IMG/VR virus record: IMGVR_UViG_3300006127_000058
Location: 1 to 32,683 of that record
Origin: a virus
Lineage: Duplodnaviria > Caudoviricetes
Reading direction: 5' to 3' (one strand)
Length of the DNA: 32,683 nucleotides
Part shown: piece by piece, positions 522 through 32,361 of the stretch
How positions within the stretch are numbered: the first letter of the stretch is position 1
How the letters are laid out: each line of letters opens with the position of its first letter
Notes under the pieces: model-generated
Told to the model about the DNA's origin: nothing
The model's input: the letters and a program-made list of their open reading frames with translations, nothing else
Databases searched by the model: none
Translations under genes and position numbers: made by a program

Positions 522-3203
522 TTATAGAACAATCCATCTGCTACCAGATGGGACTGTAACTGTTACTCCATTACTTAATGATACTGGCCCAACTGAATGA
601 GCTGAATAACCAGATGGCAATGTGTAACTTGTGCCAATTGTTAAATTGTTGACAAAAAGACCATTTGAGGCAATAACCTCTGCTCCAGTGGAAGTACCAG
701 ATGCACTTACTGTAGTAAATGCTCCAGTTGTAGGAGTTGTTGCCCCAACAGTTCCATTATGAGCACCAGTAAACCCTGTGGCTGACAATATTCCTGTATT
801 AGGAACATAGCTTAATTTAGTGCTACTTGTTGTTTCCCCAGTGATAGTGCCTGTTGTGGCAGTGGTCAAAGTTGGGTAATAAGTAGAACTAGAGCTAGTA
901 TTATCTGTAATGGTTATCCCTGATACTGGAGCTGTTGCCCAAGTGGGAACCCCTCCAGCCAAAGTCAAAATATAGCCATTTGTGCTTGCAGATAAGAATG
1001 TTGTGGTTCCAGATGCTGTTTGATAAGGCAAAGATCCATTAGCTCCACCACCCAAATTTGTGGCAGTTGTAGCACTGGTTGCAGTTGAGGCATTTCCACC
1101 AATAGACAAACTTGAGGCTGTGCCTGTGAGTCCAGTGCCTAAACCAGTAAATGATGTGGATGTCAAAACACCAGTGCTTGGGTTGTACTGAAGTTTTGTG
1201 GAACTTGTGTACTCTGTACTTAAACTTCCAGAGGTCTGGTTAGCAAATAATGGGTATCTGGTTGCATTAGTGGTAGTGTCATCAGTGACTGTGGCATAGC
1301 TTACTGGAGTTGCCCAAGTAGGTGCTCCTGTGCCATTTGACTGTAAAAACTGACCACTTGTGCCAACAGAAGTCAAAGCTATTGCAGAGGCTGTGGAGTA
1401 AGCCACTGATCCTGCAGAGGCTGTCAAATTAGTATTAGTTCCACCATAAGATAGGCCAACTAAATTACCTTGCCAAGAAACTGAGCCAGAAATACTGCTT
1501 GAAGTATTAAAGTTTAGAGTTGCAGTTCCCCAAGAGGCTGTGCTTGGAACATAAGAGTGAACATCCCAAGTGCCATTTGTTGTGCCATTGTTGAGGAGGA
1601 TTAGGTGCGAGGCCCCCCCAGCCTGTAATGCCAAAAGTGATGTAGATCCATCATGTGCATTAATTTGTACAGATGAATAAGTAATATTATTGTTAAAGTA
1701 AAAAGTATCCCCAACCACTAAAGTAGTGGCATCAGGCATATTAAATGTCTGTGATGTCACAGTACCATTAACAATTTGATACTGAGATGATGCAACAGTT
1801 AAATTGATTGGAGTGGATGATGCTGTGGTTGTAGTGGTATTTGGAATAAAGTTATTAGCAAATACATTTTGGTTTGAATCTCTCAAAACCACAGAATTAG
1901 CACCACTAGATGCAGTTACTCCAGTTCCACCACTGCTTACCCCTAAAGTTCCTCCCAGTGTCACAGCTCCAGTTGTTGCAGTGCTTGGAGTCAATCCAGA
2001 CAAAGAAGTCTGAAATGTGGATACAAAATTACCTGAAAGAGCAGATGTGGGAATGGTTGTAGATGCAGTCATTGCACTTGTACCATTGCCATAAACATAG
2101 CCTGTCAGGGTTGTGGCTCCTGTGCCTCCATTTGCCACATTTAAAGTGCCAGAAAGGGTCACAGCTCCTGTTGTGGCAGTATTAGGAGTAAAGCCTGTTG
2201 TGCCTCCAGAAAAGCTCAAAACACCAGTATTTGCTATGGTAATTGCTGTTGAACCATTGTAGCTAGTGCCTGAAAGACCAGTTCCAATGGTCAAAGCATT
2301 TGGATTTACAGCAGTTATAGTGGCTGATCCACCCAAACTAATGCCAGTTCCATTAATAGTGATTGAACTATTAGTCAATCCAGAATTAGGAATAGTTGCA
2401 TTAATTTGACTAGGAGCAATGCTAATAGATGTATTGGTTACAGATGTCACCTGACCAGATGCATTTGTAACAAATACTGGAACAGTTGATGCAGAACCAT
2501 AAGTGCCTGCTGTGCCAACTGGAGTAATGCTGAAAGTGTATGAGGAAAGGGTCAGCCCTGTGCCTGCAAAGTAACTGGCCGCACTTGCCAACTGGCTCCA
2601 AGTCACTGGTGTGGTTCCCAATGTTCCACCACTAGTAATAGTACATACCCAACCAGAATTCTGTTGAGTTGAGCCATTTTGAATAAATGTAAAGGCTGAA
2701 ATCAGTGAATTCCAAGTATTTGCATCACTTGATCTAGACCAAGCTCCTGAAGAGGCCACATAAATGCCATTTTGTGATGATGTGCTTTGATTCTTTACCA
2801 AAACCCTATCATTGGCTAAAGTGGTATAGCCATCTATGGTTTGCAATCCACTTAAAGTAAGGTTCCCAGTTGAGGCAACTTGGCATTCTGCTTTGATGGC
2901 ATAGCCTTGAACAAACATATCCACATAATTCTTGTTAACCAAGTCAGTTGGATTGCTTGGAGTTGTGGAAATAGTGCCTGTAACTGTAGAAATAGAGGTA
3001 AAAGCACCAGAAGATGGAGTTACAAGTCCAATTGTGGTGCTATTTATTGTGCTATTGGTGATGTTTAACCCACTTTGAGATGGATTAAAAGTAGCATAAA
3101 AAGGCTGTCCTTGCCCTATAAAAGTGTTGAAACTACCATCCAAATTGAAATATGCCTGAACAGGCAATAGATTTTGGTCAGATGTTAGGGCAGGAGCAGT
3201 CAT
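522..3203 (-). CDS. Long tail fibre protein (893 aa)
   Basis: T/S/G-rich. Contains the NLTLSGLQTIDG...DRVLVKNQ...QNGIY...WSRSSDA fibre domain and internal duplications (TPxTATTGAVTLxGTLxVxxGGTG x2; TDxT...YP...TSSTKLxYxPxTG x2). Confidence 0.8.
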   Translation of the reverse strand: MTAPALTSDQNLLPVQAYFNLDGSFNTFIGQGQPFYATFNPSQSGLNITNSTINSTTIGLVTPSSGAFTSISTVTGTISTTPSNPTDLVNKNYVDMFVQGYAIKAECQVASTGNLTLSGLQTIDGYTTLANDRVLVKNQSTSSQNGIYVASSGAWSRSSDANTWNSLISAFTFIQNGSTQQNSGWVCTITSGGTLGTTPVTWSQLASAASYFAGTGLTLSSYTFSITPVGTAGTYGSASTVPVFVTNASGQVTSVTNTSISIAPSQINATIPNSGLTNSSITINGTGISLGGSATITAVNPNALTIGTGLSGTSYNGSTAITIANTGVLSFSGGTTGFTPNTATTGAVTLSGTLNVANGGTGATTLTGYVYGNGTSAMTASTTIPTSALSGNFVSTFQTSLSGLTPSTATTGAVTLGGTLGVSSGGTGVTASSGANSVVLRDSNQNVFANNFIPNTTTTTASSTPINLTVASSQYQIVNGTVTSQTFNMPDATTLVVGDTFYFNNNITYSSVQINAHDGSTSLLALQAGGASHLILLNNGTTNGTWDVHSYVPSTASWGTATLNFNTSSSISGSVSWQGNLVGLSYGGTNTNLTASAGSVAYSTASAIALTSVGTSGQFLQSNGTGAPTWATPVSYATVTDDTTTNATRYPLFANQTSGSLSTEYTSSTKLQYNPSTGVLTSTSFTGLGTGLTGTASSLSIGGNASTATSATTATNLGGGANGSLPYQTASGTTTFLSASTNGYILTLAGGVPTWATAPVSGITITDNTSSSSTYYPTLTTATTGTITGETTSSTKLSYVPNTGILSATGFTGAHNGTVGATTPTTGAFTTVSASGTSTGAEVIASNGLFVNNLTIGTSYTLPSGYSAHSVGPVSLSNGVTVTVPSGSRWIVL

Positions 3204-3562
3204 CAGAATGAAAAGCAGTTAATAAGCAGAATATCGCCTGCATTCATTGTGGCACTTGTACCATCAGCATTTTTGAATGATGCCAAAGTAACAGAGTTCT
3301 GAGTAAATGCTGTTTGCAATAAATAAACAGTGTTTGCCTCAGATACATTGTTAGCTTGAGCAGACCATCCATTTGGTGCTGTTGGTAAAGTGATAGTGCC
3401 TCCAGTAGAGCCACCAGAACCAATCTTTACTTGGAAACATTTTGTGTTAGCTCCTGTCAAAGTTGGACTTGTTCCAAATCCAGTTTGAATGGAGGGACTA
3501 CCAGCAATGTTGTTTACCTCAGTAACATTGTAAGAAGTTGTGTAAGCTACTTGATTGGTCAT
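3203..3562 (-). CDS. Putative virion structural protein
   Basis: Beta-rich 119-aa ORF, translationally coupled within the late operon. Confidence 0.55.
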   Translation of the reverse strand: MTNQVAYTTSYNVTEVNNIAGSPSIQTGFGTSPTLTGANTKCFQVKIGSGGSTGGTITLPTAPNGWSAQANNVSEANTVYLLQTAFTQNSVTLASFKNADGTSATMNAGDILLINCFSF

Positions 3563-3912
3563 GATTGATCTGCCACAGGCATTACATATAGAGTATTAGC
3601 TGTCCCAACTGCACTCAAATTGAATCCATTTGCAGGCACTGCAATCACAGTTGGCTGAGACATAGATATGCCCAAGACAAATGATGTTGAGGTGTTGCCT
3701 GCAGTGGGCAATACTGCTGAAGGTGCAGTAATGCTTGTAGGATTTAAAGGAGCAATTGAAATGGCAATAGGTGTAGAGCCAGTATTCAAAAATGCACAGT
3801 AATTGATTTGGTCATTGCCAACAGGAACAATGCTCAAAGAATTACTAGCAGTTGTGGTTACTGCAACAGCATAGGTCTGGCCTATAGGTCTGTAAACACT
3901 GGTATTAGCCAT
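3559..3912 (-). CDS. Putative virion structural protein
   Basis: 117-aa ORF, coupled, with virion-type composition. Confidence 0.55.
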   Translation of the reverse strand: MANTSVYRPIGQTYAVAVTTTASNSLSIVPVGNDQINYCAFLNTGSTPIAISIAPLNPTSITAPSAVLPTAGNTSTSFVLGISMSQPTVIAVPANGFNLSAVGTANTLYVMPVADQS

Positions 3913-3914
3913 AA

Positions 3915-4250
3915 TTAAACTGCTGTTACTGGTAATGGGCCTTCAGCTCTGGTGATCTGGATTACATATTGACCAGATGCAGGCACTGCTGATGCACTAG
4001 CTGTCAAATTACCATACTGAATTGTTAAAACATTGTTTGTTAAACAATCAGCCTCTGCGATAAAGACACCAGCAGTTTGATTACCAATTACACCTTGAAC
4101 AATGATTAAATCAGTGGTCAGGAGGCCTGGCACTGTATAAGTAACTGCTGTTGTGGTGTTGGCCGCTAGTGTGTTAGAGGCATTAGAAAATGTGGGAGAA
4201 ATGTAGAAAGTGCTTAAAGCATTTCCCCTTGCAATTGTGGTAGAGGGCAT
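3915..4250 (-). CDS. Putative virion structural protein
   Basis: 111 aa, AAGGA SD upstream, beta-rich. Confidence 0.55.
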   Translation of the reverse strand: MPSTTIARGNALSTFYISPTFSNASNTLAANTTTAVTYTVPGLLTTDLIIVQGVIGNQTAGVFIAEADCLTNNVLTIQYGNLTASASAVPASGQYVIQITRAEGPLPVTAV

Positions 4251-4290
4251 GTTTTTTTCCTTTGAAAATTGAAATTGTACTGTTTAAAAC

Positions 4291-4324
4291 AGAAAAAGCT
4301 ACCCCTTTTGAGAGTAGCTTTTCT
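4291..4324 (-). terminator. Intrinsic terminator after the coat/decoration genes (possibly bidirectional)
   Basis: Minus-strand GCTACTCT-CAAAA-GGGGTAGC stem-loop followed by TTTTTCT. A T-tract also follows on the plus side. Confidence 0.7.
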
Positions 4325-4342
4325 TCTTTTTTTTAAGCTGTA

Positions 4343-4789
4343 TTAGCTAAAGTCATAGCCATAAACATATACATCACCAGTTCCAGTAGCACCTGATGCA
4401 ACTGTCACATTGGCATATAAAGTTTGGTTAGCATAAGACAAACTGGTTGAGCTTGAATCTACATAGGCAGTTCCTAGTGTGGAAGTTGACAAAGATGCAA
4501 GTTGAGCAGTTGTTAGAGCACCAAATAAACTTGATGGTGAACCAGAGTTTACTGTTGCAATGCCTAGTGCTGTGCTAGTTGACAAACTTACCACTGATCC
4601 ATTGTTGTTTACATTGGTAACAATCAACTCTTTTGGCAAATATGCTGTGGAGTTGTTAACAGGGATTGGGGTAAATGCAACTGCATTCAAGTTAACACCC
4701 TTTGCCACACCAATCAAGCGCAAAGCCTGATTAGTGGTGACATTACTTGGGTGTGCTGAGACTGTGGTTGCTGGTCCGGGATTACTCAT
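4343..4789 (-). CDS. Probable capsid decoration/minor head protein
   Basis: Directly downstream of coat and before the terminator; beta-rich, ends DVYVYGYDFS. Function inferred from position. Confidence 0.55.
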   Translation of the reverse strand: MSNPGPATTVSAHPSNVTTNQALRLIGVAKGVNLNAVAFTPIPVNNSTAYLPKELIVTNVNNNGSVVSLSTSTALGIATVNSGSPSSLFGALTTAQLASLSTSTLGTAYVDSSSTSLSYANQTLYANVTVASGATGTGDVYVYGYDFS

Positions 4790-4820
4790 TTTTTATTTCC
4801 TTTAATGTAAATGTTAATGA

Positions 4821-6074
4821 TTAAGCCGCGATTCTGCAAGCAAGCTCTTGGTACAGCGGTGCCCAACCATACAGAACATCAAGCCTTGTTGGGATTGAAT
4901 CGTTGTTGATGGTGTATTGGCGCACAACACGCATGGACAAACCAACTTCCTTGTCAGAGGCTCTGCCTGCAAAGTGCACACCCTCGGGCAACTCAAGATC
5001 AGCTACCGCTAACGTAAATGCATTGCGATGGAAGAGCATGTTTTGTGGTGACAATGTGCCAGTGTTATTGAATGGTGTAACAACTGCTGTTGAAGATGTT
5101 GTACCAATAATAATAGAGTTCTGGAACTGACCACCAGTGATGACTGCAGGGCTAACTGTAATGTTTGTAGCTGAAGTTCCAACTGTTGTAGTGGACTGAA
5201 TTACAAAATTACGCAATTTGCCAGAGCCATAAGCCTGTCTGTTTTGTGGGTTAGTTGCATACACACCAGCAATCTGGATCACATCACCAGCATTCAATGT
5301 AGATGCTGTAGATGCTTTGATCTGGATTGTTGAATACTGTGACCAACCACTGTTCAAGTAACCAATTTGGCCTGTAGCAGTTGTTGTGTCAGCAGAGAGT
5401 GTGTTTCCACTGTAAGAGCCAAAGGTTTGACTGACCACGTTTTGATCCAATTTCCAATTGGTCCCAGCGCTGTCCCGGCCCATAAGGCCTTTGCGGTATT
5501 GCTCCGCTATCGCCTCTTGTGGCATGAACAAACCTTTTAGTGAATCAACAATAGTTGCTGATGTAAAGGGTTCAACAATACATGCTCTGCGACCATCTCT
5601 TGGTGCACCTTCTGCATCAAGATATGCGCCAGCAGTTAGATAGGTGATGAGGCCTGTGGGGGGTGTCCCGGCCGTCCCGACGATATTTGCTGTTTGCAAA
5701 GCCGCCATCTGTAATCCATCACGGTCTATCTTATTTGCAATAGCAGCTACTGCGGGTTTCAATACGCGGTCACTGAACATATCGAGTGATAGGGCCAGGT
5801 CTTGCGTAGTAAATTGCGTATCCACGTGAAATTGCGTTGATAGAGTGACCGGCACCGAAGTTTCATTGAAGTCCTCTACGTTGAGTGCGGGCCCGGTTGT
5901 ACCAATGAAGCGACCAGGTCTGCGGACATTGACTGTATTGCCGATCTTTCCGCCAACTACGGCAAACTGATCGTCATAGTTGCGATCAACTTCACTTGAA
6001 AATGTGAGTTCGTTTTCTAAGACCATTAATGCTTCATTAGTGATCTTGGATATCGTTAGCAAATTATTTGCCAT
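4821..6074 (-). CDS. Major capsid protein, P22 gp5-like (HK97 fold)
   Basis: MANNLLT...ITNEALMVLENEL, KIGNTVNVRRP and C-terminal RLDVLYGW match the P22 coat family; follows scaffold. Confidence 0.92.
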   Translation of the reverse strand: MANNLLTISKITNEALMVLENELTFSSEVDRNYDDQFAVVGGKIGNTVNVRRPGRFIGTTGPALNVEDFNETSVPVTLSTQFHVDTQFTTQDLALSLDMFSDRVLKPAVAAIANKIDRDGLQMAALQTANIVGTAGTPPTGLITYLTAGAYLDAEGAPRDGRRACIVEPFTSATIVDSLKGLFMPQEAIAEQYRKGLMGRDSAGTNWKLDQNVVSQTFGSYSGNTLSADTTTATGQIGYLNSGWSQYSTIQIKASTASTLNAGDVIQIAGVYATNPQNRQAYGSGKLRNFVIQSTTTVGTSATNITVSPAVITGGQFQNSIIIGTTSSTAVVTPFNNTGTLSPQNMLFHRNAFTLAVADLELPEGVHFAGRASDKEVGLSMRVVRQYTINNDSIPTRLDVLYGWAPLYQELACRIAA

Positions 6075-6103
6075 TTCTGTTCCTTTAAAAAGTTAAAAAT
6101 TGT

Positions 6104-7015
6104 TTACCTTATCTTTCCCGCTTTCCTGAGTTCTTTCCACTGTGATGGAGTGCCATTAAAATTCCCATTTGAATCTATTGGCACTTCAACATTAGAACCC
6201 CCTCTAATAGGATTGATAGGTGCTGGTGCATTGCTCTTTCTAACAGTAGGCTTTTGTGTCTCTGTAGGCTTTTCAAATCTAGCCTCCAATCTGCCAACTT
6301 CTCTCAAAGCACTAATCAATGACATCTTGCCAATTTTTTCTGCTACTTCAGGATTCTCTGCTAAGTGATACAAGATCTTTGGCCCAACATCACTTTCCAA
6401 AATAGCATCCCTAACTTGATCTGAAACAGTCACATCTGATGATGCAATCATTTCCTCATAATCAGGAAGTTCAGCCTTTGCTTGCTCTAACTTAGAACTC
6501 CAAGATGATAAAACCTTGTCTTTCTCTGCCTTTGCTTGCTTTTGCTGTTCAGCAATATCTCTGTCTTTTAGTGCCTTTTCAGTTGAGTATTTTGCTAATG
6601 CCTTTGCATATTCAAATGCATCAGTAAAATCACTAGGCTGTGGTTCTTTATCAAGGTTTTCTGCCACTTGGGGCTTACTAGCTTGTTCAAGTTCTTTAAG
6701 CCTGTTCTCTAAAGCCTCTCTTTGTTCCCTTTCCTTTTGAGCCTCTGCTCTGGCAAGTTCCCTTTCTTTGATGACTTTATCAAACCTCTTTTCAAGTTTT
6801 GGCTTTCTGACACCTTCCTCTACTGGTTTGGTTTCCTCTTGTGCCTCTGGTAAACTCTGATCCTCTTTTGTCTCTGTCAGCTCAGGTTGCTCAACCTCTG
6901 GTGAGGGAGTCTCTGCAGGGTCAGGACTTTGGGTCTCAGCTAAACCAAGTTTGTTAGCATAAAAATCACCTGAATTTTCTGAAGTAATTACATTACTTGC
7001 TTGTCTATCACTCAT
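6104..7015 (-). CDS. Scaffolding protein
   Basis: Acidic coiled coil between portal and coat, with ESDVGPKILYHLAENPE and a basic C-terminus. Start moved to ATG 7015 (GAGGAA SD). Confidence 0.8.
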   Translation of the reverse strand: MSDRQASNVITSENSGDFYANKLGLAETQSPDPAETPSPEVEQPELTETKEDQSLPEAQEETKPVEEGVRKPKLEKRFDKVIKERELARAEAQKEREQREALENRLKELEQASKPQVAENLDKEPQPSDFTDAFEYAKALAKYSTEKALKDRDIAEQQKQAKAEKDKVLSSWSSKLEQAKAELPDYEEMIASSDVTVSDQVRDAILESDVGPKILYHLAENPEVAEKIGKMSLISALREVGRLEARFEKPTETQKPTVRKSNAPAPINPIRGGSNVEVPIDSNGNFNGTPSQWKELRKAGKIR

Positions 7016-7067
7016 GAGTTTCCTCAAGTATTTTGCCTAGTCTGCCTGACTAGTAAGGTTTGTGGGC

Positions 7068-7096
7068 AATATAACCCAAAATTATAAGGCTGTCAA
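7068..7096 (-). promoter_or_regulatory. Sigma70-type promoter for scaffold/coat
   Basis: TTGACA (7096-7091), 17 nt spacer, TATATT (7073-7068), immediately after the portal stop codon. Confidence 0.7.
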
Positions 7097-9205
7097 TTAT
7101 TGTTGCTGATTAGGCATAATGGATTGGTCAGCCTGCATTATTGCTTGGTACTGCTCCTGATTTCTCATTGCTATTTCCCTTTCTAGCCTTGCAGTGTCCA
7201 TGTTGTGCAAAAGTAAGTCTGTGATGGCCTCAATTTCAGACCTGTTTTGACTTGTGATGGCCTTGGTGTTCACATCATGAACCCTAGCCTCCAAAGTAGA
7301 CTCAGTGTTATGAGCCTTGGCAGTCTGCCTCATCAACTCCCTCTGTGTCTCAGCCTGTTGCTTGACTTGCTCAATATCTTGTCTTTGTTTCATAGCCAAC
7401 TGCATAGCCTGTAACTGCTGTGTGAGCTGTTGGACTTGAGCTTGGGCTTGCTTAATTGCCATCTGAGCCTGTGGAGGAATCTCAGAATGTTCATCAATCT
7501 GGGCTAATGGGTTCAGAGTTGCAAGTCTGTCTGCAATCACCTCAGCACCTGGGAAGTCCATGTTCCTGAACACCAAGTCTGCAGCGGCATTGAACAATTG
7601 CTCATTTCCAGACAGCAATGGCATCATTGCCTCAACTGCCTCTTGACGCTTGGAGTTATACCCTGGGCCTGTCTCCATCACCACATCATATTGGCCTACA
7701 GTCACATCATTCATGACTCTTCCAACTGCATCCCTTTGATTAATGGTCAAAAGGTCTGGCTTTCCATCATCACCAATAATCCTCATTACCCTTTCAGTGT
7801 CATAAATATGAGGAATTAGATCCAAAATGATCTTACCAATATGGGCTATGGACTTGGTTAAATTGTCATAAAGGTCAAAATTGGTCAGATCAATCTGCAT
7901 TTGTTGACCATTTAGAGCCTTTCCAGACATATTGCCTGGGAGCTGTTGGCTTGGGTCATAAATGCCAATAATAGTAGCCATGTCATCATTGATCTGACTA
8001 GCGGCAGTCATAATCCCTGCTGGAGGAGGCTCTGGCTGAAGTCTTGTTGGAGGAGGAGCTGGGTTTCCATCAATATCAGTCTGCTTATATCTCAAAGTAG
8101 CCATTGACTTGATGTTGGCACTTGCCCAATCATTCTCATGACCCTCATCTTGACCCTCTGCCATGATCCATTTAGCCTTTGGAGCCAAGGCCACAGATTC
8201 AGTCATGGATGTGACCCAGAAGTTGTACATGCGCTGGCTGTCCTTCGCATGTCTCACCATTCCAAACTTTTTCCTCTTGTCACCAATGACCACATGCCTT
8301 CCATAAACTGGAACAATTGGGATGTAGTAGCCAGGCCAATCTCTCTCCTCCAAGACCTCAATTGCTGTCAGTTTTTTCCATTTAATGGTCTTTTTGACAC
8401 TTGGCCTTTCATCCACTATTTCTAGCCCAGATCTCTTAATCTTTTCAAAAAAGTCCTTGGAATCTGCAAATCTAGCAGAGCCATCACTCAATAAATAGAG
8501 TTTGGCTTTTTCTCTGACTGTGTAAAAGTATTCTGCAACCCTAATATCTTCCCTAGTAATCCATTCAGACTGAGTGTCTCCAGTTCCTCTAGAGGTAAAG
8601 GAAGTGTCTTGGGCATCTGGATACATCTGCTTAAACACAGATTTAGGCATCATGGATGTAATCAGACACTTTTCTTGGTCTGAGCCATCAACTGCTATAG
8701 AGTTGGGATCCATATAAACAGTAAAGGGATTGTCAATAGGATCTATGTAGATTTCTTGGTCAAAAGAATCTTCCCTTACATATCTATGGTCAACTCTGAT
8801 ATATCCCCAACCCATGCGTACAGCATAGTTATAAGCATTGTCATAAGCATTATCTGCACTGGAATTTACCTCTATGTGCCTGACCATTCCTTGGACTACT
8901 TTTGCATCTGCCGCGTCCTCCACAGTATTTGTGGCATGAACCTTAATCCTTGGCCTTTGTTGTCTCTGTTGGTTAGTTACTTGTCTGCAATAGCCATCCA
9001 GTTTATTAATAGTCAAAACTGGTCTGGACTCTAAGTTTCTTGAGTTTTGTAGGTCAACAGGCCATTGATCCCCCCCAGATGCAAACTTGAGATCTTCCAA
9101 AGCCTCTTGTCTGTTCATGGTGTCTGCATCATTTGCAAACTTTAGAAATTGTTTGGCCTCATCAATGATGGGGTCATAGTCTGTTTCTTGAGGATCTAGT
9201 GCCAT
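7097..9205 (-). CDS. Portal protein, P22 gp1-like
   Basis: 702 aa with GDQW, RPVLTINKL, YIPIVPVYG, GMVRHAKDSQRMYN, SGKAL and YDVVMETGPGY, plus a Q-rich C-terminal barrel. Confidence 0.92.
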   Translation of the reverse strand: MALDPQETDYDPIIDEAKQFLKFANDADTMNRQEALEDLKFASGGDQWPVDLQNSRNLESRPVLTINKLDGYCRQVTNQQRQQRPRIKVHATNTVEDAADAKVVQGMVRHIEVNSSADNAYDNAYNYAVRMGWGYIRVDHRYVREDSFDQEIYIDPIDNPFTVYMDPNSIAVDGSDQEKCLITSMMPKSVFKQMYPDAQDTSFTSRGTGDTQSEWITREDIRVAEYFYTVREKAKLYLLSDGSARFADSKDFFEKIKRSGLEIVDERPSVKKTIKWKKLTAIEVLEERDWPGYYIPIVPVYGRHVVIGDKRKKFGMVRHAKDSQRMYNFWVTSMTESVALAPKAKWIMAEGQDEGHENDWASANIKSMATLRYKQTDIDGNPAPPPTRLQPEPPPAGIMTAASQINDDMATIIGIYDPSQQLPGNMSGKALNGQQMQIDLTNFDLYDNLTKSIAHIGKIILDLIPHIYDTERVMRIIGDDGKPDLLTINQRDAVGRVMNDVTVGQYDVVMETGPGYNSKRQEAVEAMMPLLSGNEQLFNAAADLVFRNMDFPGAEVIADRLATLNPLAQIDEHSEIPPQAQMAIKQAQAQVQQLTQQLQAMQLAMKQRQDIEQVKQQAETQRELMRQTAKAHNTESTLEARVHDVNTKAITSQNRSEIEAITDLLLHNMDTARLEREIAMRNQEQYQAIMQADQSIMPNQQQ

Positions 9206-10751: not shown

Positions 10752-10790
10752 ATTGTAAATTTAAGTATATATTTGATTTATTTATAACTT

Positions 10791-12665: not shown

Positions 12666-12864
12666 TTAATCTATCCAATAGCTTGTCAGTTAAATCTACA
12701 GACATTTGCACCATCTCATCAGGTTCCCAACTAGAGCTTGGATATAAAGTAGATATAAGGCCTGAGAGCACCTTGCCTGCAATCATAGCCCTTAAATCCC
12801 TTTGATTGATGTAATCTTGGTGCAACTCCTCAAATCTAGCCTCAATTTCATCATCATAGGTCAT
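12658..12864 (-). CDS. Hypothetical protein
   Basis: RDLRAMIAGKVLSGL...TDKLL, a common small phage family; coupled. Confidence 0.65.
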   Translation of the reverse strand: MTYDDEIEARFEELHQDYINQRDLRAMIAGKVLSGLISTLYPSSSWEPDEMVQMSVDLTDKLLDRLNA

Positions 12865-17597: not shown

Positions 17598-17896
17598 GCT
17601 TTAAAAAATCAGAATCAAAACAAGAACCTCAAGATGATGGTGCAAGATTGCTTTGCAGTGAGTTTGGTTGTACCAACCCTTGGACTGTTCAAATTGAAAA
17701 ACCCAAATGTAGTTTGCACCAATGGAAAAAGAAAGAACCTCCTCCAGAACAAGTTTGGGTGAAACTTGAAGAGCCTATGGGTGATGGTAGAGATTGGGCT
17801 AGGATTATTCTTGCCAAACAAGAAATGGGGTATAAAGTCAGGAAAATTAGCCTTGAATTTGCTAAAGAGGCATTAAGAATTAAGGAAGTAGTATGA
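17594..17896 (+). CDS. Hypothetical protein (Cys/His motif)
   Basis: CSEFGC...KCSLH and RDWARIIL; coupled to the initiator. Confidence 0.6.
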   Translation: MSFKKSESKQEPQDDGARLLCSEFGCTNPWTVQIEKPKCSLHQWKKKEPPPEQVWVKLEEPMGDGRDWARIILAKQEMGYKVRKISLEFAKEALRIKEVV

Positions 17897-18963
17897 AAAC
17901 ATTAATTTCTACTGTTGAACAAGATGAAATCACCAAAGAATGCTCAAAATCATTTGACTTTCAATTTGATGGATCAACCAAATTTCAAGTGCCTTTTTTT
18001 GAAAAGCCTGAAAATTTCCAAATAGGCTTGATTGTAGGGGCATCAGGTAGTGGCAAATCTTCCATACTATCTACCATAGGTGAGGCTGAAAAAGTGTCTT
18101 GGGAGCCTAATAAAGCCATTTGTAGCCATTTTGAAAGTGCTTTGGATGCTCAGAACAAACTCAGTGCTGTTGGACTCAATTCTGTACCATCTTGGTTAAA
18201 GCCTTATCATGTTTTGTCTATGGGAGAAAAGTTCAGAGCTGACTTGTCTAGATCTTTAAAAGACAATGCCATCATTGATGAATTTACATCTGTTGTGGAT
18301 AGAAATGTGGCTAAATCTTGTTCTTATGCTATAGCTAGGCATATCAGAAAAGAGGGCTTGAAAAATATGGTGTTTGCCTCTTGTCACTATGACATCATTG
18401 ATTGGTTACAGCCTGATTGGATTTTTGACACAACTACAAACCGGCTCACAGTCGGAAGGGGGTCAGTTCGGCCAGTTCTGGAATTGGAGATACTTCCTTG
18501 CACAACCGAAGCATGGTCAGTCTTTCGCAACCATCACTATCTCACAGGAAACCTCAATAAAAGTGCACGATGTTGGATCGCAACATGGGAGGGAACGCTT
18601 GTTGGATTTGCCGCAGCTATCACTCTTCCCTCTGGAACCTTAAAAAAAGCATGGAAAGGTCATAGAACTGTGATACTTCCTGATTTCCAAGGTCTAGGGT
18701 TTGGAGTAAGAATCAGTGATGCAATTGGTCAAATATTTGTAAATGAGGGTTGTAGATATTTTTCTAAATCTAGTCATGTAAGACTTGGTGAATATAGGAA
18801 TAATTCACCTTTGTGGAGACCAACAGCTCACAATATGCAAGATAGATCTAGACAATATAAAAGATCTTTGGAAAATAAAACAGATTTCTTTTGGTCAAAA
18901 GAAATGACTGAAAGACATGCAGATAGGATTTGTTATTGTCATGAATACATAGGTGCAAAATGA
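17893..18963 (+). CDS. ABC-type ATPase fused to a GNAT (Mom-like) acetyltransferase
   Basis: Walker A GASGSGKS, signature LSMGE, Walker B IIDEF with VVDR, H-loop SCH; then HHYL and the acetyl-CoA motif RTVILPDFQGLGFG. Confidence 0.85.
   Translation: MKTLISTVEQDEITKECSKSFDFQFDGSTKFQVPFFEKPENFQIGLIVGASGSGKSSILSTIGEAEKVSWEPNKAICSHFESALDAQNKLSAVGLNSVPSWLKPYHVLSMGEKFRADLSRSLKDNAIIDEFTSVVDRNVAKSCSYAIARHIRKEGLKNMVFASCHYDIIDWLQPDWIFDTTTNRLTVGRGSVRPVLELEILPCTTEAWSVFRNHHYLTGNLNKSARCWIATWEGTLVGFAAAITLPSGTLKKAWKGHRTVILPDFQGLGFGVRISDAIGQIFVNEGCRYFSKSSHVRLGEYRNNSPLWRPTAHNMQDRSRQYKRSLENKTDFFWSKEMTERHADRICYCHEYIGAK
18374..18643 (+). CDS. Candidate overprinted +1-frame ORF ending ...PQLSLFPLEP
   Basis: Open +1 frame across the ATPase/GNAT junction; QLSLF at 18614-18628; coincides with a CpG island. 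Confidence 0.4.
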   Translation: MPLVTMTSLIGYSLIGFLTQLQTGSQSEGGQFGQFWNWRYFLAQPKHGQSFATITISQETSIKVHDVGSQHGRERLLDLPQLSLFPLEP

Positions 18964-19514
18964 ATGCAATTCTTGAATTAAATGATTTAGGAATAGTCAG
19001 AAATGCAACATTAAATGACATTTCCTATATTATTTCATTATCAAAAAAGGAAAGTAATAGTCTTGGATTTATACCAAAAATGGCTTATGAATCAGCTATT
19101 ACAGGAATAAAATCAGGTGATAGATGGAGTAATGTTTGTAATGACAAATTATTTATTATTGAATGTAATAATGATTTGGTAGGTTTTTGTTTAGCAAGTT
19201 TTGGAATTCCTCATGCTATTAGTAAAAAAGGAAAAATAGCTCAAATTTGTTTACAAACTGATGCTAGAAAATTTTTAAGAGGTAGAAAACTTTTAGACCA
19301 TGTTGTTGATTATGGCAAAACTCAAGGAACTTTTGCATTCAGTGCTGGGTGTGCTGATGATTTGGAATCCAACTTATTTTGGCAATCTATGGGTTGGATT
19401 AAGATTGCACAAAGAAATGGTATATCTCACAAAAATACTTGGAAACAAACAAGTCAAAGGTTGATAAACATTTATAGATATGATCCATCTGATTTTTTAT
19501 TAGGATTAATATGA
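18960..19514 (+). CDS. GNAT-family acetyltransferase
   Basis: VRNATLND, LVGFCL, motif A QICLQTDARKFLRG, motif B SNLFWQSMGW. Confidence 0.85.
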   Translation: MNAILELNDLGIVRNATLNDISYIISLSKKESNSLGFIPKMAYESAITGIKSGDRWSNVCNDKLFIIECNNDLVGFCLASFGIPHAISKKGKIAQICLQTDARKFLRGRKLLDHVVDYGKTQGTFAFSAGCADDLESNLFWQSMGWIKIAQRNGISHKNTWKQTSQRLINIYRYDPSDFLLGLI

Positions 19515-22378: not shown

Positions 22379-22389
22379 TTTTTTTCCTT

Positions 22390-23030: not shown

Positions 23031-23245
23031 TATTTATTCTGAAAAAAATGTACTACATAACCAGAAATGCTAGACAGAGCAGAGACTATTGCCATCCCTG
23101 CCCAAAACCCACCCCTACCTTGGTTAGCAAGTTTGAGCAACTCTTCCATGCCTGTTTCTAGCTTGTCAATCTTTTGTTCCATGTTCTCTACTTTTTGCCA
23201 AAGAACACCATACTTAACAAGATCTATGGGTGATTCTGTACTCAT
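23030..23245 (-). CDS. Small coiled-coil protein with C-terminal TM (holin/antiholin-like)
   Basis: ANQGRGGFWAGMAIVSALSSISGYVVHFF hydrophobic tail; at the head of the lysis cluster. Confidence 0.6.
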   Translation of the reverse strand: MSTESPIDLVKYGVLWQKVENMEQKIDKLETGMEELLKLANQGRGGFWAGMAIVSALSSISGYVVHFFQNK

Positions 23246-24009
23246 GATTTGAATATGTAAGCTAAAGCATAGTAAGGAGGTAGGTTAGCATTTGTGCCAC
23301 TTACACCAGTGCTTTGATTTGTAGTTGTTGTGGATGTTGCTACAGATATTCCAGTTGTTGCTGAATCTGTATTAGCAGATGAATTTGCTGTAAATACTGC
23401 AGTTGAACTACCAGACTGAGGAGCTGTTACTGTAGCCTTTTGGTAAGCATGGAAGTGGCCTGGGTCAGTCACCGTAGAGGTAGAGCTAGATGTAGCTGTG
23501 TGAGTATGTGACACCACAATAGCATCTGTAGAGCCTCCAGTAGCACCTGGTGAGTAAGTGGAGCCTGCACCCACTATAAAAGATGATCTTAGATCTGGTG
23601 TTCCATTAGTACCATCACAAAGCAACCATCCACTAGGAATAGCTCCAATAGCTCCAGACCACATTGCAATCAAGCCTGATGGAACATAAGCTCCACCACC
23701 ACCACTTGTAGATTGAACTCCAATAATTCCATACAAATTATCATAAGTCTGAATAGTCACATTATTGCTATCAGTCAATACAAACTTGTAGTTATAGCCA
23801 TAAGTCAACCAAATCTCATTTTGTGGCCTACCATCTGTTCCCAAAACAATAGGATTGGTATTAGGAAAAACTGCACCATTGTCTGAGTAAGTGGTCAGAG
23901 GAGTTGTGGAGCCTGCCTGATAGGTGTAGATAAATCCACCATTTAATGGCAATCCAGTGGTAGTAAAGAATTGAAATCCATTACCTATGGGTGAAAGATT
24001 GACACTCAT
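23242..24009 (-). CDS. Short tail fibre with virion-binding N-terminus and collar domain
   Basis: GLPLNGGFIYTYQAGSTTP...NPIVL..GR; collar IPSGWLLCDGTNGTPDLR; SHTH...HFH; NLPPYYALAYI. Confidence 0.8.
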   Translation of the reverse strand: MSVNLSPIGNGFQFFTTTGLPLNGGFIYTYQAGSTTPLTTYSDNGAVFPNTNPIVLGTDGRPQNEIWLTYGYNYKFVLTDSNNVTIQTYDNLYGIIGVQSTSGGGGAYVPSGLIAMWSGAIGAIPSGWLLCDGTNGTPDLRSSFIVGAGSTYSPGATGGSTDAIVVSHTHTATSSSTSTVTDPGHFHAYQKATVTAPQSGSSTAVFTANSSANTDSATTGISVATSTTTTNQSTGVSGTNANLPPYYALAYIFKS

Positions 24010-26252: not shown

Positions 26253-27754
26253 TATTGATTACCAGTTACAAGTGAATAAATTTTGTTATATTTTTTGATT
26301 AAATCTGCATAGCCTTCAGAATTTGGCCCACCAACTTTATCTATAATTTTTCTTATTTCTACTTTGTCTTTGTTTTTTATAGCATCATAATATTTCAATG
26401 CATCAATTTCAGCAACTGATGCCCATTTTTCCATGTAATCTCTGCCTGCTAATGGATTGTTGCCTGCTTTTTTAATTGCATTACTCATTCCTAATCCATA
26501 CAAATCAGATGCAGTAACCAATGCTCTATTTGTTCTAGCTGTGGACTTAATTGCATCATTTGTCCAATTAGTAGTTCCAATTTGTTCTTGGGCAATTGAT
26601 CTTCCTTGGTCAGTGCCTAAACCAGCTTGTTGTGCAAGATTTCCAGTTTGTAAAGCCATGTAATGACCAAGTTGTTGAAGATTACTTGTTTCATCAGATG
26701 TCCAAGGAATTGCAGAATAACCACCACCCAATTTTGCAATTGTTTGTGCACCAACTCCAGTAATGGATTTATTAGCCAAATCAATAATTTGATTGTAGTT
26801 GTATGTACTTTGAGGAACTGTTAGTCTTTGTTCAATAGCTTTTTGTTGAATTGCTTTAGCAGTTTTTACTGTTTCCTCATTTTCAAAAGGAACTCTTGTA
26901 ACTGGCAAAGTTGGTTCTGCTGTTTGACCTGTTTTGGCTCCAGGCATAGCATTTGGAGGAACAGATGCAGGAACAGTAGTCTGTCCAATTACTCTGCCTT
27001 TGTCATCCATAACATTAAATATTGGATTACCTGAAATATCTTTAGTATTTGTATCAACCATCCTTTGTGAATAAGGCAATGGTGATGGTGTAGCAACAAG
27101 TGGCTTACCTCTTAAAGTTCCTGGAGCAACTCCAGTAATATCAGGATTACCTCCAGCAATTGGATTAAATTCACCACCAGTTCCAAGAAATTGAGTTGCA
27201 GGAAATTTGGCCGCATATTGCTCAGATGTTGTTCCAGAACTTTTAGCCGCTATGCTTCTTAGCTTTTCATAAGCATCATAATCTTTGTTAGCAATAGCCT
27301 CTTCTAATTGACCTAAAAGATTAGATGGATGTTTGGGCAATCCTACAGCCTCAGTTCCTTTTCTAATAATTTCTAAAGATTTTGTTAATGCTCTTTGATT
27401 TACTTCACCAGACTTTTCATCTGTAAATTCATCTATTTTTGGCAAAGAATTAATCATTTGTCTTGAATAATTTTCACCAGAAACTAAAAAATCTTGTTTA
27501 GCTTTTTGTGCTCCAGTAACAGCAGATTCTGCCCTAGCTTGAGCCTCTTTTAAAGCTATTGGATTCATCATCCTAGCTTGCTCAATATCCATTTGCTGTT
27601 TTTGCAAAGCCTTTTGAGCTTGCTCAATTTGCAAAGGATTTAATTGTTGAGCCTGTTGATAAGCCTGTGCTCCTTTAGCAATATTAAGCATATCCCCCAG
27701 AGATGTCTGAGGCTGTGGTTGAATTGCAATAGGTGAAAAATTAAAGCCTGCCAT
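26252..27754 (-). CDS. Internal virion/DNA ejection protein (P22 gp20 position)
   Basis: Q/A-rich N-terminus; synteny. Confidence 0.6.
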   Translation of the reverse strand: MAGFNFSPIAIQPQPQTSLGDMLNIAKGAQAYQQAQQLNPLQIEQAQKALQKQQMDIEQARMMNPIALKEAQARAESAVTGAQKAKQDFLVSGENYSRQMINSLPKIDEFTDEKSGEVNQRALTKSLEIIRKGTEAVGLPKHPSNLLGQLEEAIANKDYDAYEKLRSIAAKSSGTTSEQYAAKFPATQFLGTGGEFNPIAGGNPDITGVAPGTLRGKPLVATPSPLPYSQRMVDTNTKDISGNPIFNVMDDKGRVIGQTTVPASVPPNAMPGAKTGQTAEPTLPVTRVPFENEETVKTAKAIQQKAIEQRLTVPQSTYNYNQIIDLANKSITGVGAQTIAKLGGGYSAIPWTSDETSNLQQLGHYMALQTGNLAQQAGLGTDQGRSIAQEQIGTTNWTNDAIKSTARTNRALVTASDLYGLGMSNAIKKAGNNPLAGRDYMEKWASVAEIDALKYYDAIKNKDKVEIRKIIDKVGGPNSEGYADLIKKYNKIYSLVTGNQ

Positions 27755-27762
27755 GTTAGTCC

Positions 27763-28575
27763 TTATGCTTGTGCACCTGGCACACCACCAGATTGAGTAT
27801 TAGGGCCAATTGTTGCATTTGGATCATAGCCTTGTGGAGCTTGTACATTAGGCTTTTGATTTAGCAATGCCCATAAAGTAGCACCACTTCCCAAAGTATT
27901 TGTAAGTCCACCATAAGCATTGGCAGATGCAATTTGGCCTTGACCCAAAGCACTAGCTCCACCAACTCCAAGACTGCTAATGTTGTTTGTGGCATTTTGG
28001 CCCGCAGTGTTCACAGCACTTTGGGCTGTTTGACCAATGCCTGCCTGTCCAGCCAATATCCCATAAATATTATTTCTTTGATTCTGGTAATTAGTAAAAG
28101 CATTTTGGTATTGAGTCCCAGCCAACCCTTGTGTGTAATTTTGTAACCCAGTAAGTGCATTTCCACCTATCAAACCTCCACCCACATTATTGGCATTTTG
28201 TGTAGCCCTTTGGCCTTGGTCAAGCACAAAACCATAGTTAGGAGCCATTTGAGCATTTAAATCACCAGATCCAAATTGATGAGTTAAATAACCAGACCCT
28301 GTGGAGGTTCCTGTTGGGTTTCCATTAGCATCATAAGTCTGATAAGCACCAGATCCAAGTGAACCAAGTTGATTAATAGAGTTATAACCAAGTTGTCTTT
28401 GAGGAGCTTGTTGTTGTTGAATGGTGTTGAATTCAGCCTTTTGCTCTGCAATGGCTTGCAGTGCGGCTTGGTATTGCAACTGCGCGGCTTGTTGTGCGGC
28501 ATTAGCCTGTTTGTTAGCACCCCATACACTTAAACCACCAGATGCAAGTAATGCGGTTCCTACTCCAATTGGCAT
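27763..28575 (-). CDS. DNA ejection/pilot protein (P22 gp7-like)
   Basis: Hydrophobic G/A N-terminus; PNYGF...QG...GGLIGGNAL..L..Y.QGLA...YQNAF motif. Confidence 0.75.
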   Translation of the reverse strand: MPIGVGTALLASGGLSVWGANKQANAAQQAAQLQYQAALQAIAEQKAEFNTIQQQQAPQRQLGYNSINQLGSLGSGAYQTYDANGNPTGTSTGSGYLTHQFGSGDLNAQMAPNYGFVLDQGQRATQNANNVGGGLIGGNALTGLQNYTQGLAGTQYQNAFTNYQNQRNNIYGILAGQAGIGQTAQSAVNTAGQNATNNISSLGVGGASALGQGQIASANAYGGLTNTLGSGATLWALLNQKPNVQAPQGYDPNATIGPNTQSGGVPGAQA

Positions 28576-28577
28576 AA

Positions 28578-28928
28578 TTAACCCCTTTTAATCAAAACTT
28601 CATCCACCTTAGACTCATCTTTTTCATCAGTGGCATGAATACAAAACCAAACAGAATCCTCCAATGCTTGGATTGAATGGTGTATACCAGATTTTATTTC
28701 AATACAGCTAGGAGCACTATAAGTATTTTCAGAATTATCAGTTCTCACAATAACCTTGCCTTTAGCCAAAATACTCAAGTGACTAAAGCTATGGATGTGC
28801 TGAACCACAAAGAAATCCTTTGGGATGGTCATTTCTTTGGCATACAAACCATCAGAAAAGTTATGGACTGTTTTAGGATCAAAGTCCATCCTACCCTCTA
28901 AGGTCTTAAAAATATCTGAATGATTCAT
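28578..28928 (-). CDS. Cupin-fold protein
   Basis: HNFSDGLYAKE, HIHSFSH and GIHH...ALED metal-binding cupin pattern. Confidence 0.75.
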   Translation of the reverse strand: MNHSDIFKTLEGRMDFDPKTVHNFSDGLYAKEMTIPKDFFVVQHIHSFSHLSILAKGKVIVRTDNSENTYSAPSCIEIKSGIHHSIQALEDSVWFCIHATDEKDESKVDEVLIKRG

Positions 28929-29143
28929 TGGTTATAGTAAGGAACTTTGAAGTTTTGCCCATTTACTGTTACATTCATAAACCCTACTGGAGCACTAGGC
29001 AAAATAGCTCCTCCCTTTGTGGCTGTAGGTGATGATGTGAAATTCAACAAATTCTGAAAATACTGTAGCCAAGCTCTACTTGGCCTTTGAGTTGATTGAT
29101 CCAATAACTCTGTCTGTGGATAAGCCTTGATTTGTGTGGTCAT
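28925..29143 (-). CDS. Small tail-associated protein
   Basis: 72 aa coupled to the gp10-like gene; PSRAWLQYF...KVPYY. Confidence 0.6.
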
Positions 29144-31374
29144 GATTCTCCCTGACTTGCTTTCAGATTAGAGGAAACAATTACAGCAAATACAGGGTCA
29201 GTCATGGAAACCTCAAAAACTCTATCCCTAGCAGTTCCAAGCCTTCTCCAAATAGCCCTGTTTCTATATCTTCCCTCTTGACCAATAGTTACCCAATATT
29301 CTCTAGACCATGTAGATCCACCATCACTAGACCATCTGAGCATAGCTTGTGGATAACTTTGGACTTGGCTAGACAATAATTGATTTGGAACACCAATGAT
29401 GATAATGTCATTTACACCAATAGTAAAGGTCTGAGTTGGAGCAATTATTAGGTTTTGACCCACTACATTGCCTGTGACCACAGTTGGCCCTACAGTCCCC
29501 ACACCAGGCTGAAACTGGATCTGCAACTCATCAAAAAATTGCCTTTGCAAGTCACTGACCAAATGAGGTGCTCTTCTGACCCTCCTAATAAATTGACCAG
29601 AATCTGTGTAATTGGATGGGTCAAGCATGTAAATCTGACCATTTTGCCAATCCCCAACCAAAACCATATTCTGAAACACAGCAGAGCAATTAGCCCTATG
29701 TCTGTGGAATTTATTATTGTTATCACACCAAAGCCATTTATGCCACATTCCTGTGGTTATATCAAATGCCCAAGTTAAATCCAAAGTTGGGAAAGAAATG
29801 ACATAAACTTCATGTCCCTCTAACTGATAAGTAAAGGCAATTGCATCCTCAACATACTCATTGACTAGGGTATTTTCAACAGCATGAGTGGATATTCTTT
29901 GTGGAATATAACCATTCATCTGAACAATTTGAGATTGGCCTCTGATATTTCTGCTTAAATAAGCAAAAGAATTGCCTAATCTAGCCACAGAAAATGGAGC
30001 CACAATGCCATGCTGAGTGCTTGTGCCAGGGATTCTCTGAAATGGAAATGGATAAGTTCCAGTATCTACCCAAACCTCAGAAGATACTTCCCCTAATAAA
30101 TAAACTTCCCTATGGTCAACAATTAAAGACACTAAATTATCAGGAGAGCCATCTTTTGAGGCAAAACTCAGTGAATAAGAAATAGGTGAAAGTGGATTAC
30201 TTGCACCCCATTGTTGGGTATTTGGCCTGTTATAGACAAAATAATTGTCCACAGTATCCACCACATCTGCACTACTAAATGCACCATCACTAGAGGGCAA
30301 AATAGTAAAGTTCAGAGCATAAAGGGTTTCTGAGCTAACAGTTTGAGAGCCTGAAACTATATAAGATCCAGTTCCACCAGAGCCTGTGCCAAAGGTTAAG
30401 TTTAAGGTCAACCCAGTACCAGCACCTGAATCCGTCACAGAAACAGGGTTTGTAGGTGTGGCTGTGTAGGCTCCAGGGCTAGTCAGTGAAAGTCCTGTAA
30501 CCACTCCTCCAGTGCTGATTGAGGTCACTGTGAATGTGGCTGGGCTTTGCCCATAAACACCACCCACAATAGTCACAATATCATTGACAGCATAGCCAGT
30601 GCCTGCAGTCACTATAGAGCCACTCAATACAGTCTGTGAGCCTAGAGCTGTGATTACAGTCTTGGTTGCTACACTGGTTCCTTGGATGGTCTGGCCTGGG
30701 TACAGTGTCCCTGTAATGGCTGTCACAGTCAGAGTTGTGCCTGAAATGGATCCTGTCAGTGTTGCCGCTACATTGGCAGAGTTCATCCTCTCTGCTGTTG
30801 ATACAGTCTGAGACAAATTAATTGTGTATGTCCCAATGCCTCCAGATCCAGATCCAAGGGCTGTAATCACTGTTTCATTAGCTACACCAATGCCAAATAA
30901 TGCTTGTCCAACAGCTATGGTTCCATTGGTCACAGCAGTCACATTTAATGTGGTTCCTGAAATTGTGGCAGTAAAAACAGCAGATGAGGGACTAGAAATC
31001 CTCCATGTATATCTATTTTGACCATCCACAATATAGACATTGGTTCCATTATCAGTAATTCCTACCTGACCACTTGAGGTAGTTAATTGACCAATAATTG
31101 TAGGAACTAAGCTAGATGTCAGTGAATAAACATATTGACCACAGACAGCTACTAATTGATTGGATCCTGAGACAGCTCTTAATCCCCTAACTGGAGCCTG
31201 ATTCTGAAATGAAACCACAGTGGTGAGGCCAGGAGTTGGGTACAGAGCAACCACACCCCTAGTGCCAGGCTGTTTAAGTGGGTCAATCTCAGGCCTCCAG
31301 TTAATGCACTCTTGGTCATCTTGGTAGATAGAGGGAGCACCATAACTAGGGCCAACAAAGCCAAATTCAGGCAT
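29140..31374 (-). CDS. Tail hub / DNA stabilisation protein, P22 gp10-like, with inserted beta domains
   Basis: [36 protein letters not shown] and [11 protein letters not shown]...[13 protein letters not shown]. Confidence 0.88.
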
Positions 31375-31383
31375 TTATGCTCC

Positions 31384-32361
31384 TCATCTAAAAAACCCGC
31401 CAGATAAGATCCAACCCGCATCTTTTTGTCTGCCAACCAACAAAGAATCAGCATATGTAGAAACCATTGGAGGTTTCATGTTTGTTCTTTTTACTGTGGC
31501 TTTGGCCTGAGCCGCGTATTTCATAATCATCCCAATCTGGGTTTGACTTGCCTTTCCATACATAGGCATTAATCTTTCAGCCAAACACCATCTCATTGCC
31601 ATTGTGTAACCCTGTGGCAAAGCAATATTGTCATTAATTGAGGTAAATTGTTGGAACAATTGATCCACAAATATATGCATTTCACCTTGGCTAGGATTAG
31701 GCCAAACATATAGATTTCCCAATGTTTCTGTAGGCTCATAATACAGAGCTTTAGGCCAAGGGCCATTTAAAGTTTTCAAGCCAATCATCTCATATTGTTC
31801 AATATTTAGAACAGAAACAGGATAATCTAATCCACCATTTGTGATGGGCTGACCATTGGAATATGTGTTAATTCTGACAAAACAAGAATTTATAGCCAAA
31901 GGTCTGTAGTAATAAGCATTGATGGTTTCACTAGAAATGGGTGCTGAATAGCTAACATTTAAGAGGTAAGTGCCTGCCTCATTTATATTCCCACCAGCTC
32001 CTGTGAGCATTTGCTGTATCTTTGTGCCATTAGTAATGCCTGACCCAGAGAGTGTCATTCCTATGGAAATTCCACCAGATTGAATTGAGGTAATGGTGAG
32101 GATATTTCCAGAAATAGAACCAGTAAATATGGCTCCAATTTGACCCCCAGGCCCTATGGTGTATTGGGTTTGTCCAGAAATTAAAGGAAAAATAATCTCA
32201 TTCTTATAAAACACCATCATGCTTTCATTAGACCATTGGTCTAGCATGTCTTGGAGCATGTCAAAAGCATCTTGGGCAGATTCTGGAGTTGGTGTCTCCC
32301 CAGCCTCCAAAGCTCCAATATCCTTTAATGCCCTAGAAATGATGTCTATAGCTTGACTCAT
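31384..32361 (-). CDS. Head-to-tail adaptor, P22 gp4-like, with inserted beta domain
   Basis: DIISRALKDIG...GETPT...D....L.DMLDQW and LAERLMPMYG; upstream of the gp10-like gene. Confidence 0.8.
   Translation of the reverse strand: MSQAIDIISRALKDIGALEAGETPTPESAQDAFDMLQDMLDQWSNESMMVFYKNEIIFPLISGQTQYTIGPGGQIGAIFTGSISGNILTITSIQSGGISIGMTLSGSGITNGTKIQQMLTGAGGNINEAGTYLLNVSYSAPISSETINAYYYRPLAINSCFVRINTYSNGQPITNGGLDYPVSVLNIEQYEMIGLKTLNGPWPKALYYEPTETLGNLYVWPNPSQGEMHIFVDQLFQQFTSINDNIALPQGYTMAMRWCLAERLMPMYGKASQTQIGMIMKYAAQAKATVKRTNMKPPMVSTYADSLLVGRQKDAGWILSGGFFR

Follow-up and report, generated by a model that had tools for sequence, protein, structure and literature searches.

We have found that GCWGC, the most depleted pentamer in the genome of an uncultured P22-like podophage, survives there in four of five cases under an overlapping CG, a dinucleotide that the same genome has purged about tenfold. 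The genome is IMG/VR record IMGVR_UViG_3300006127_000058, and the window referred to below is this whole virus record of 32,683 bases. From comparison with related phage sequences, we consider it probable that this is restriction-site avoidance in which CG carries a modification, so that a CG would be costly in general and protective where it overlaps a site that cannot be avoided. This protective use of a rare CG is a variant of restriction-site avoidance and is more informative than the hierarchy of the two avoidances itself. Through its codon choice the phage would borrow a DNA mark for protection, and the likely modification motif, CG, could be read from the plain sequence of an uncultured phage. 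If true, this would place CG-specific modification outside the Mollicutes and would imply bacterial pressure on CG.

Avoidance of restriction sites by double-stranded DNA phages is well documented (Rusinov et al. 2018, PMC6286503). Like the phages described there, the window is nearly rid of short palindromic Type II sites, namely GCWGC, GGWCC and at least a dozen hexamers. Unlike in those phages, its avoidance reaches the protein level through loss of Ala-Ala, is coupled to the CG purge and leaves CG-overlapped sites in place. Amino-acid or codon effects are not treated in the accessible text of that study, where 'amino acid' and 'codon' have no matches. Our literature search, with subscription papers and supplements outside its scope, returned no description of CG-overlap rescue in phages.

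Avoidance of GCWGC and CG in the window

GCWGC occurs five times in the window against 41.4 expected under a maximal-order Markov model (z = -6.9), and against a mean of 30.2 and a minimum of 19 in 2000 shuffles that preserved the proteins, the codon usage and the first base of each following codon. A first-pass annotation, made from the letters of the window alone, had proposed that GCWGC is avoided, and the under-representation expected of Type II restriction-site avoidance is significant under both nulls. All 24 GCNGC words are in-frame Ala-Ala pairs, 22 of them in the 56 called genes and two in an open reading frame (ORF) truncated by the left end of the window; out of frame there are no such words, against 9.4 GCWGC and 3.4 GCSGC expected. 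Nineteen are GCSGC with GCC or GCG as the first Ala codon (2578..31515; starts at 2578, 4162, 4825, 5701, 7584, 8001, 8910, 9543, 15045, 18610, 20918, 24265, 27210, 27246, 28463, 28484, 28496, 30764 and 31511). Every GCSGC position listed in the annotation is present within one or two bases, and four had been missed (4825, 5701, 7584 and 18610).

The five GCWGC positions that it named (31, 55, 5743, 7581 and 18613) proved exact and complete. Those at 31 and 55 lie in the start of a minus-strand gene that runs off the left end (3..74; MSTTLAAGTATSGAALSS...), both in Ala-Ala and both overlapped by CG. Two further CG-overlapped copies lie in Ala-Ala-Ala stretches, one in the portal gene (GCC GCT GCA; 7581..7588, minus strand) and one in an ABC-ATPase/GNAT gene (GCC GCA GCT; 18610..18617, plus strand). 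The sole copy in the window without an overlapping CG (5743..5747, minus strand), against 28.7 expected, sits in the coat gene, within its CG-rich core. TseI-type GCWGC and BbvI-type GCAGC describe one set of duplex sites and are therefore indistinguishable from sequence; TseI, BbvI and Fnu4HI serve here as labels for GCWGC, GCAGC and GCNGC.

CG occurs 135 times in the window (observed/expected ratio, O/E, 0.11), and 88 times outside the coat gene (O/E 0.074). Every NCGN context is depleted, so the effect is independent of flanking bases. At 108 Arg sites that are invariant in the CG-poor clade and its outgroup, 17 of 634 codons are CGN in the clade and 234 of 429 in the outgroup; the portal gene (7097..9205, minus strand) has 3 CGN and 38 AGR codons for Arg, and its close CG-normal relatives have 23-36 CGN. 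Because a change from CGN to AGR requires C to A, which deamination does not make, CG is counter-selected and not merely decayed.

Across the called genes, with the coat gene excluded, 17 of 19 Ala-Ala pairs open with GCC or GCG, codons that encode only 3 of the 178 Ala residues followed by Val, Asp, Glu or Gly (p = 1e-19), bearing out the earlier remark that Ala-Ala nearly always takes these codons despite the shunning of CG. These data support the view that an exposed GCWGC is costlier than one CG, a hierarchy visible in the forced choices alone. The annotation's wording that GCWGC is avoided more strongly than CpG holds in such choices and fails by ratio (0.12 for GCWGC, against the CG values above). 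The 'many' residual CGs that it placed in GCSGC amount to 17 of the 88 outside the coat gene.

Avoidance extends to the proteins. Ala-Ala is the most depleted dipeptide of the window (22 versus 70.6 expected; none of 5000 shuffles was as low), and its depletion is weaker in CG-normal relatives (O/E about 0.6-0.96). At 25 sites close CG-normal relatives have Ala-Ala in common, and the window has lost the pair at 19 of them; of the other pairs containing Ala it has lost 178 of 590 (p = 5e-6). Ala-Ala has met three outcomes: one Ala is replaced, GCC or GCG is used first, or GCW is kept with a CG on its edge (NNC GCW GC or GCW GCG). The notion that the phage cannot otherwise evade a GCWGC system is contradicted both by the replacements and by the four of five GCWGC kept under CG overlap. 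Other words are also scarce: GGWCC occurs 2 times versus 25 and GAAGC 8 versus 27, the dipeptides Gly-Pro and Ala-Gly are depleted, and 13 of 41 CG-free hexamer palindromes, e.g. TGGCCA, GAGCTC and AAGCTT, are missing.

CG overlap of avoided words in relatives

Relatives were collected by portal, coat, head-closure and terminase scans (315 sequences; genomes and loci are cited by handles beginning with G and L), and words were counted in their ORFs against a codon shuffle. CG O/E outside the coat gene is below 0.2 in 22 of the 315. A quick portal tree, built from 61 of 164 rows, divides its 13 CG-poor rows between two supported subclades, A, which contains the window, and B. The two subclades and two CG-normal rows meet in an open fork, and the tree neither shows nor excludes a single origin of the CG-poor clade. 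CG is intermediate in L241 (0.39) and L434 (0.51), and L241, with a clade-type terminase and an outgroup-type portal, is likely a recent recombinant.

The two avoidances vary separately. G003 and G005 have no GCWGC versus 49 and 64 expected, with normal CG and free use of GCSGC. The close CG-normal relatives G002, G004 and G014 (L327-L332, L338) avoid GCSGC (2/35, 2/20 and 1/20), and their Ala-Ala pairs are nearly all GCW. Genomes of subclade B combine low CG with a milder avoidance of GCWGC (19/34, 28/45 and 10/27) and avoid GGCC (G008 10/47, G009 13/30). Since GCWGC can be avoided at normal CG levels, and CG purged where GCWGC is less strongly avoided, the pressures are separable, and the hierarchy of two pressures proposed in the first-pass annotation stands. 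The avoided word would appear to switch between lineages, as expected of strain-specific restriction systems. GCWGC is also wholly absent from many unrelated phage loci fetched with the TAGT glycosyltransferase (L351-L414 and others), which suggests a widespread GCWGC system.

To count overlaps, we excluded the coat gene and any site with over three other CGs within 150 bases, and distinct contexts were counted; the near-identical G011 was dropped from one overlap count. After this filter, GCWGC in subclade A is overlapped by CG in 10 of 10 cases, or in 6 of 6 when GCSGC-derived CG is disregarded; among control words the figure is 82 of 3022, and for GGCC, which subclade A does not avoid, 0 of 195. 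Subclade B shows overlap of GGCC in 31 of 46 cases (control 58/2392), of GGWCC in 8 of 37 and of GCWGC in 8 of 59. GGCC and GGWCC follow the same edge placement of CG in this sister subclade. Trp-Pro makes GGCC obligatory, and 13 of 16 distinct Trp-Pro sites in subclade B have CCG as the Pro codon, versus 11 of 1232 other Pro codons; at homologous Trp-Pro sites CCG stands in 19 of 21 rows of subclade B. The counts of CCG at Trp-Pro are 0/15 in subclade A, 0/34 in CG-normal tolerant genomes and 0/13 in G003 and G005. Loci fetched later, from which near-duplicates of earlier loci (including L421, apparently the window's own record) were dropped, supplied unseen sites of the B-like kind, with overlap of GGCC in 12 of 15, of GGWCC in 10 of 19 and of GCWGC in 5 of 17 (controls 13/460 and 24/630).

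The rescuing CG may be followed by A, C, G or T, its 5' base being fixed by the motif. CG-normal avoiders show no such rescue: 59 of 338 loci hold 7 GCWGC versus 1446 expected, and CG-normal avoiders of GGCC have CG overlap at 79 of 400 sites versus 32% in the control. Origin of the overlapped GCWGC as decay products of CGCGGC is disfavoured, because that route yields C-GCAGC and GCAGC-G prevails (15 versus 4 of 25). Separately, unrelated reduced-CG phages with TAGT keep GATC mostly under CG overlap (L352 9/13, L353 4/5, L357 19/35).

Proposed mechanism and alternatives

Except at Ala-Ala, the phage has rid its genome of GCWGC, and the proposed reason is that a host restriction enzyme cuts this word. 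The putative nuclease would be of Type II and would read GCWGC or GCNGC. Three words are spared only in the CG-poor clade, from which we infer one cause, a chemical mark on CG; such a mark on the edge of a site would block the enzyme. The mark would most likely be set by a host CG-specific methyltransferase, taken as the default because no modification gene is common to the whole clade. The cost of CG may lie in cutting of marked CG by modification-dependent nucleases of other host strains, or in mutational load. McrA (C5mCGG, where 5mC is 5-methylcytosine) and PsuGI (BB5mCGD) read marked CG and could supply such a cost (PMC12707154). A recent survey judged CG pressure unlikely to stem from defence systems (PMC11282364). 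In its full form we propose only tentatively a Gram-negative freshwater host with a dinucleotide-level CG system, comprising a marker and a defence that recognizes CG, either as such or when marked; the clade would have purged CG tenfold, co-opted the mark and set single CGs on the edges of protein-forced sites (Ala-Ala, Trp-Pro, Gly-Pro).

Known systems offer partial parallels. GCWGC is a real target of methylation and restriction, freshwater bacteria included, as ApeKI, TseI and M.AbaBS3I illustrate; the last is a GCWGC methyltransferase of lake Chloroflexi for which no partner nuclease is listed in the accessible source (PMC6329791), and its host has no tie to this phage. A mark on the edge C can block cutting, as with ApeKI, which reportedly fails to cut if both strands carry 5mC at the 3' C (PMC3087801). 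The CG-specific M.SssI and M.MpeI are orphan enzymes of Mollicutes, and CpG is under-represented in Mycoplasma penetrans (PMC11282364, PMC8256090). There, as in the window, CG depletion at the dinucleotide level points to a CG mark; unlike those Mollicutes systems, the window belongs to a phage with an Rz-like spanin that encodes no methyltransferase and in which CG is selected against beyond decay.

Several results weigh against the proposal. The subclade A hold-out is tiny and does not support the rule (GCWGC 1/3, or 0/2 without GCSGC-derived CG), and without the patch filter the overlap in subclade A falls to 9 of 15 or 18 of 25 in two locus sets. A mild excess of overlap is present in CG-normal, GCWGC-tolerant genomes (134/292 versus a background of 30%), and several avoided hexamers are unrescued, e.g. 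GATATC (0/6 in subclade A). The counts pool related genomes and homologous sites, and the loci overlap, so that p-values overstate independence. The ApeKI block needs both strands marked (PMC3087801), and most surviving sites have CG on one side. M.MpeI gave bulk DNA no protection from HaeIII (PMC13288465); this is a weak test, by which plain 5mC may not be the mark at GGCC and a bulkier one is possible. Finally, profile, relative, host and metagenome searches found no marking enzyme, host or methylation data.

A doubtful but possible variant is that the nuclease reads GCNGC, as the Fnu4HI type does, with GCSGC tolerated only through its marked internal CG. If CG is marked, GCSGC would protect itself, and a GCNGC nuclease would then be indistinguishable from a GCWGC nuclease. 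The absence of out-of-frame GCSGC accords with this variant but also follows from the cost of CG alone. A G next to the 3' end of GCCGC is much commoner than a C at its 5' end (19 versus 1 of 102 in subclade A, 13 versus 0 of 74 in subclade B). The strand concerned might profit from a second mark; this excess, which leans to a GCNGC nuclease, is lacking in the CG-normal G003 and G005 (12/125 versus 30%). The avoidance of GCSGC by the close relatives G002, G004 and G014 fits as well. G003 and G005 lean the other way: they avoid exactly GCWGC while GCSGC is free, and true GCWGC systems therefore act on this family.

It is unlikely, in our estimate, that the mark is instead phage-made and bulky, added by TAGT or, in the window, by a GNAT cassette, and not by a host methyltransferase. 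A CG-free TAGT gene is present in members of both subclades, a bulky group would hinder GGCC cutters more readily than an outer 5mC, and other TAGT phages with CG O/E below 0.62 show GATC overlap at 61 of 159 sites versus 30 expected. The window and G006 lack TAGT, however, and most of the 80 TAGT loci are not CG-poor, which led us to reject the idea that TAGT generally causes CG loss; those with O/E of at least 0.62 show no rescue (GGCC 109/319 versus 124). The GNAT cassette was rejected as a clade-wide cause of CG loss as well, being confined to the window and the near-identical G011 among 16 genomes compared. Phage cytosine hypermodification by C5-methyltransferase (C5-MT), TET and glycosyltransferase favours GpC (Burke et al. 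2021, PMC8256090). As in those systems, relatives carry TAGT (PF20691), a C5-MT or a TET cluster in variable slots; unlike them, the window lacks all three genes, G007, G008 and G010 have only TAGT of the three among the ORFs scanned, and scanning of the clade ORFs turned up no TET.

Plain two-level avoidance, in which a GCWGC nuclease acts beside an unrelated CG bias and CG-flanked sites survive through flank effects or because the true words are longer (DGCWGCH, DGGCCH, DGGWCCH), needs no unseen enzyme and accounts for the forced codon choice as well as for the way in which the two traits vary independently from relative to relative. We nevertheless regard it as quite unlikely, since it requires one rule against C and G flanks to apply to three words in the CG-poor clade only, and CG-normal avoiders spare nothing. 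Deamination may contribute to CG loss, but that methylated C in CG and GCWGC simply deaminates with no selection is highly improbable: CA and TG are in excess in the window (1.32 and 1.38), yet CA is so in CG-normal relatives too (about 1.1-1.35), CG decay converts GCSGC to GCWGC synonymously, opposite to what is observed, and neither CCG at Trp-Pro nor the change from CGN to AGR at invariant Arg can arise in this way.

Host searches, modification genes and the coat gene

Ten runs containing at least a fifth of an 8.2-kb stretch are freshwater metagenomes, in which it is present as assembled contigs, and the best of them may be the source sample; 14 runs with a share under 0.2 were left out. 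The metagenome scan gave no contig exceeding phage size. Spanins imply a Gram-negative host, and the Rz-like spanin of the window therefore points to a Gram-negative host cell. The search of cultured phages returned distant hosts only, e.g. Rhodoferax phage P26218 at 42% portal identity, and the genome scan gave two short contigs in Planktophila and Chitinophagia metagenome-assembled genomes (67-69%), probably mis-binned. Cluster members and endolysin homologues carry no organism names and offered no host link, and no host restriction system was identified in these searches. In its accessible part, a P. asymbioticus methylome paper has neither GCWGC nor CG among its motifs, and the accessible parts of PMC8936443, PMC7522526 and PMC12783734 held nothing decisive.

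The P22-like assignment of the phage rests on its P22-type coat, portal and terminase (PF11651, PF16510, PF04466) and on DNA ejection and Hc3 head-closure proteins found by PHROG match. The window also encodes ERF/YqaJ recombination genes, an M15 endolysin and a Cro-like gene; neither an integrase nor a methyltransferase was found among its 56 ORFs. Restriction-site avoidance belongs mainly to non-temperate dsDNA phages; on this score the window offers the missing integrase and the Cro-like gene. Modification genes are patchy in the clade, with TAGT in G007, G008, G010 and other members, a C5-MT in G006 and the ABC-GNAT/GNAT pair in the window. This pair (an ABC-ATPase/GNAT gene and a GNAT gene; 17893..19514, plus strand) occupies a variable slot after the replication genes, which in G007 and G008 holds TAGT instead, and is possibly a DNA-modification cassette. 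The C5-MT of G006 (L316:11885-12805) is CG-rich and closer to M.HhaI than to weak matches including entry 4dkj; two un-overlapped GCWGC of G006 fall inside it. A cluster of GATase, ADDT/aGPT-PPlase3 and TET/JBP genes in G003 (L329:800-3047) is a candidate base-hypermodification system. A 63-aa gene at 12861 is not diagnostic, as homologues at 54-59% sit in CG-normal loci.

The P22-type major capsid gene (4821..6074, minus strand) forms a CG island with 47 CGs (O/E 0.70). It also holds four of the six CCGG, both GGYRCC and the only GATATC of the window. CG in its core is at an outgroup-like level in all 14 clade coat genes compared, and the variable codons 216-344 keep one CG. Relative to the near-identical L001, 82 of 417 coat codons differ versus 17 of 702 in the portal gene; the core is highly polymorphic and a probable hot spot of recombination. 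The pressure on CG is in this sense soft. The island is likely to have been fed by repeated recombination with CG-rich relatives, which fits better than expression needs; translational selection is disfavoured because CG has been purged from codons 216-344 within this very gene, and the core has its non-optimal NCG codons at the outgroup level. Coat genes of relatives are interrupted at three positions by inserts of about 240-300 bases (L104:4950-5205, L092:1405-1645, L030:4870-5170). Rfam gave no match in the window or in these inserts, which have in common GACTAAG and ATAGTC blocks that resemble group I intron core elements. The head-closure gene of the near-identical L160 and L161 contains about 810 extra bases (L160:1271-4312, L161:1189-4230) that are absent from the window.

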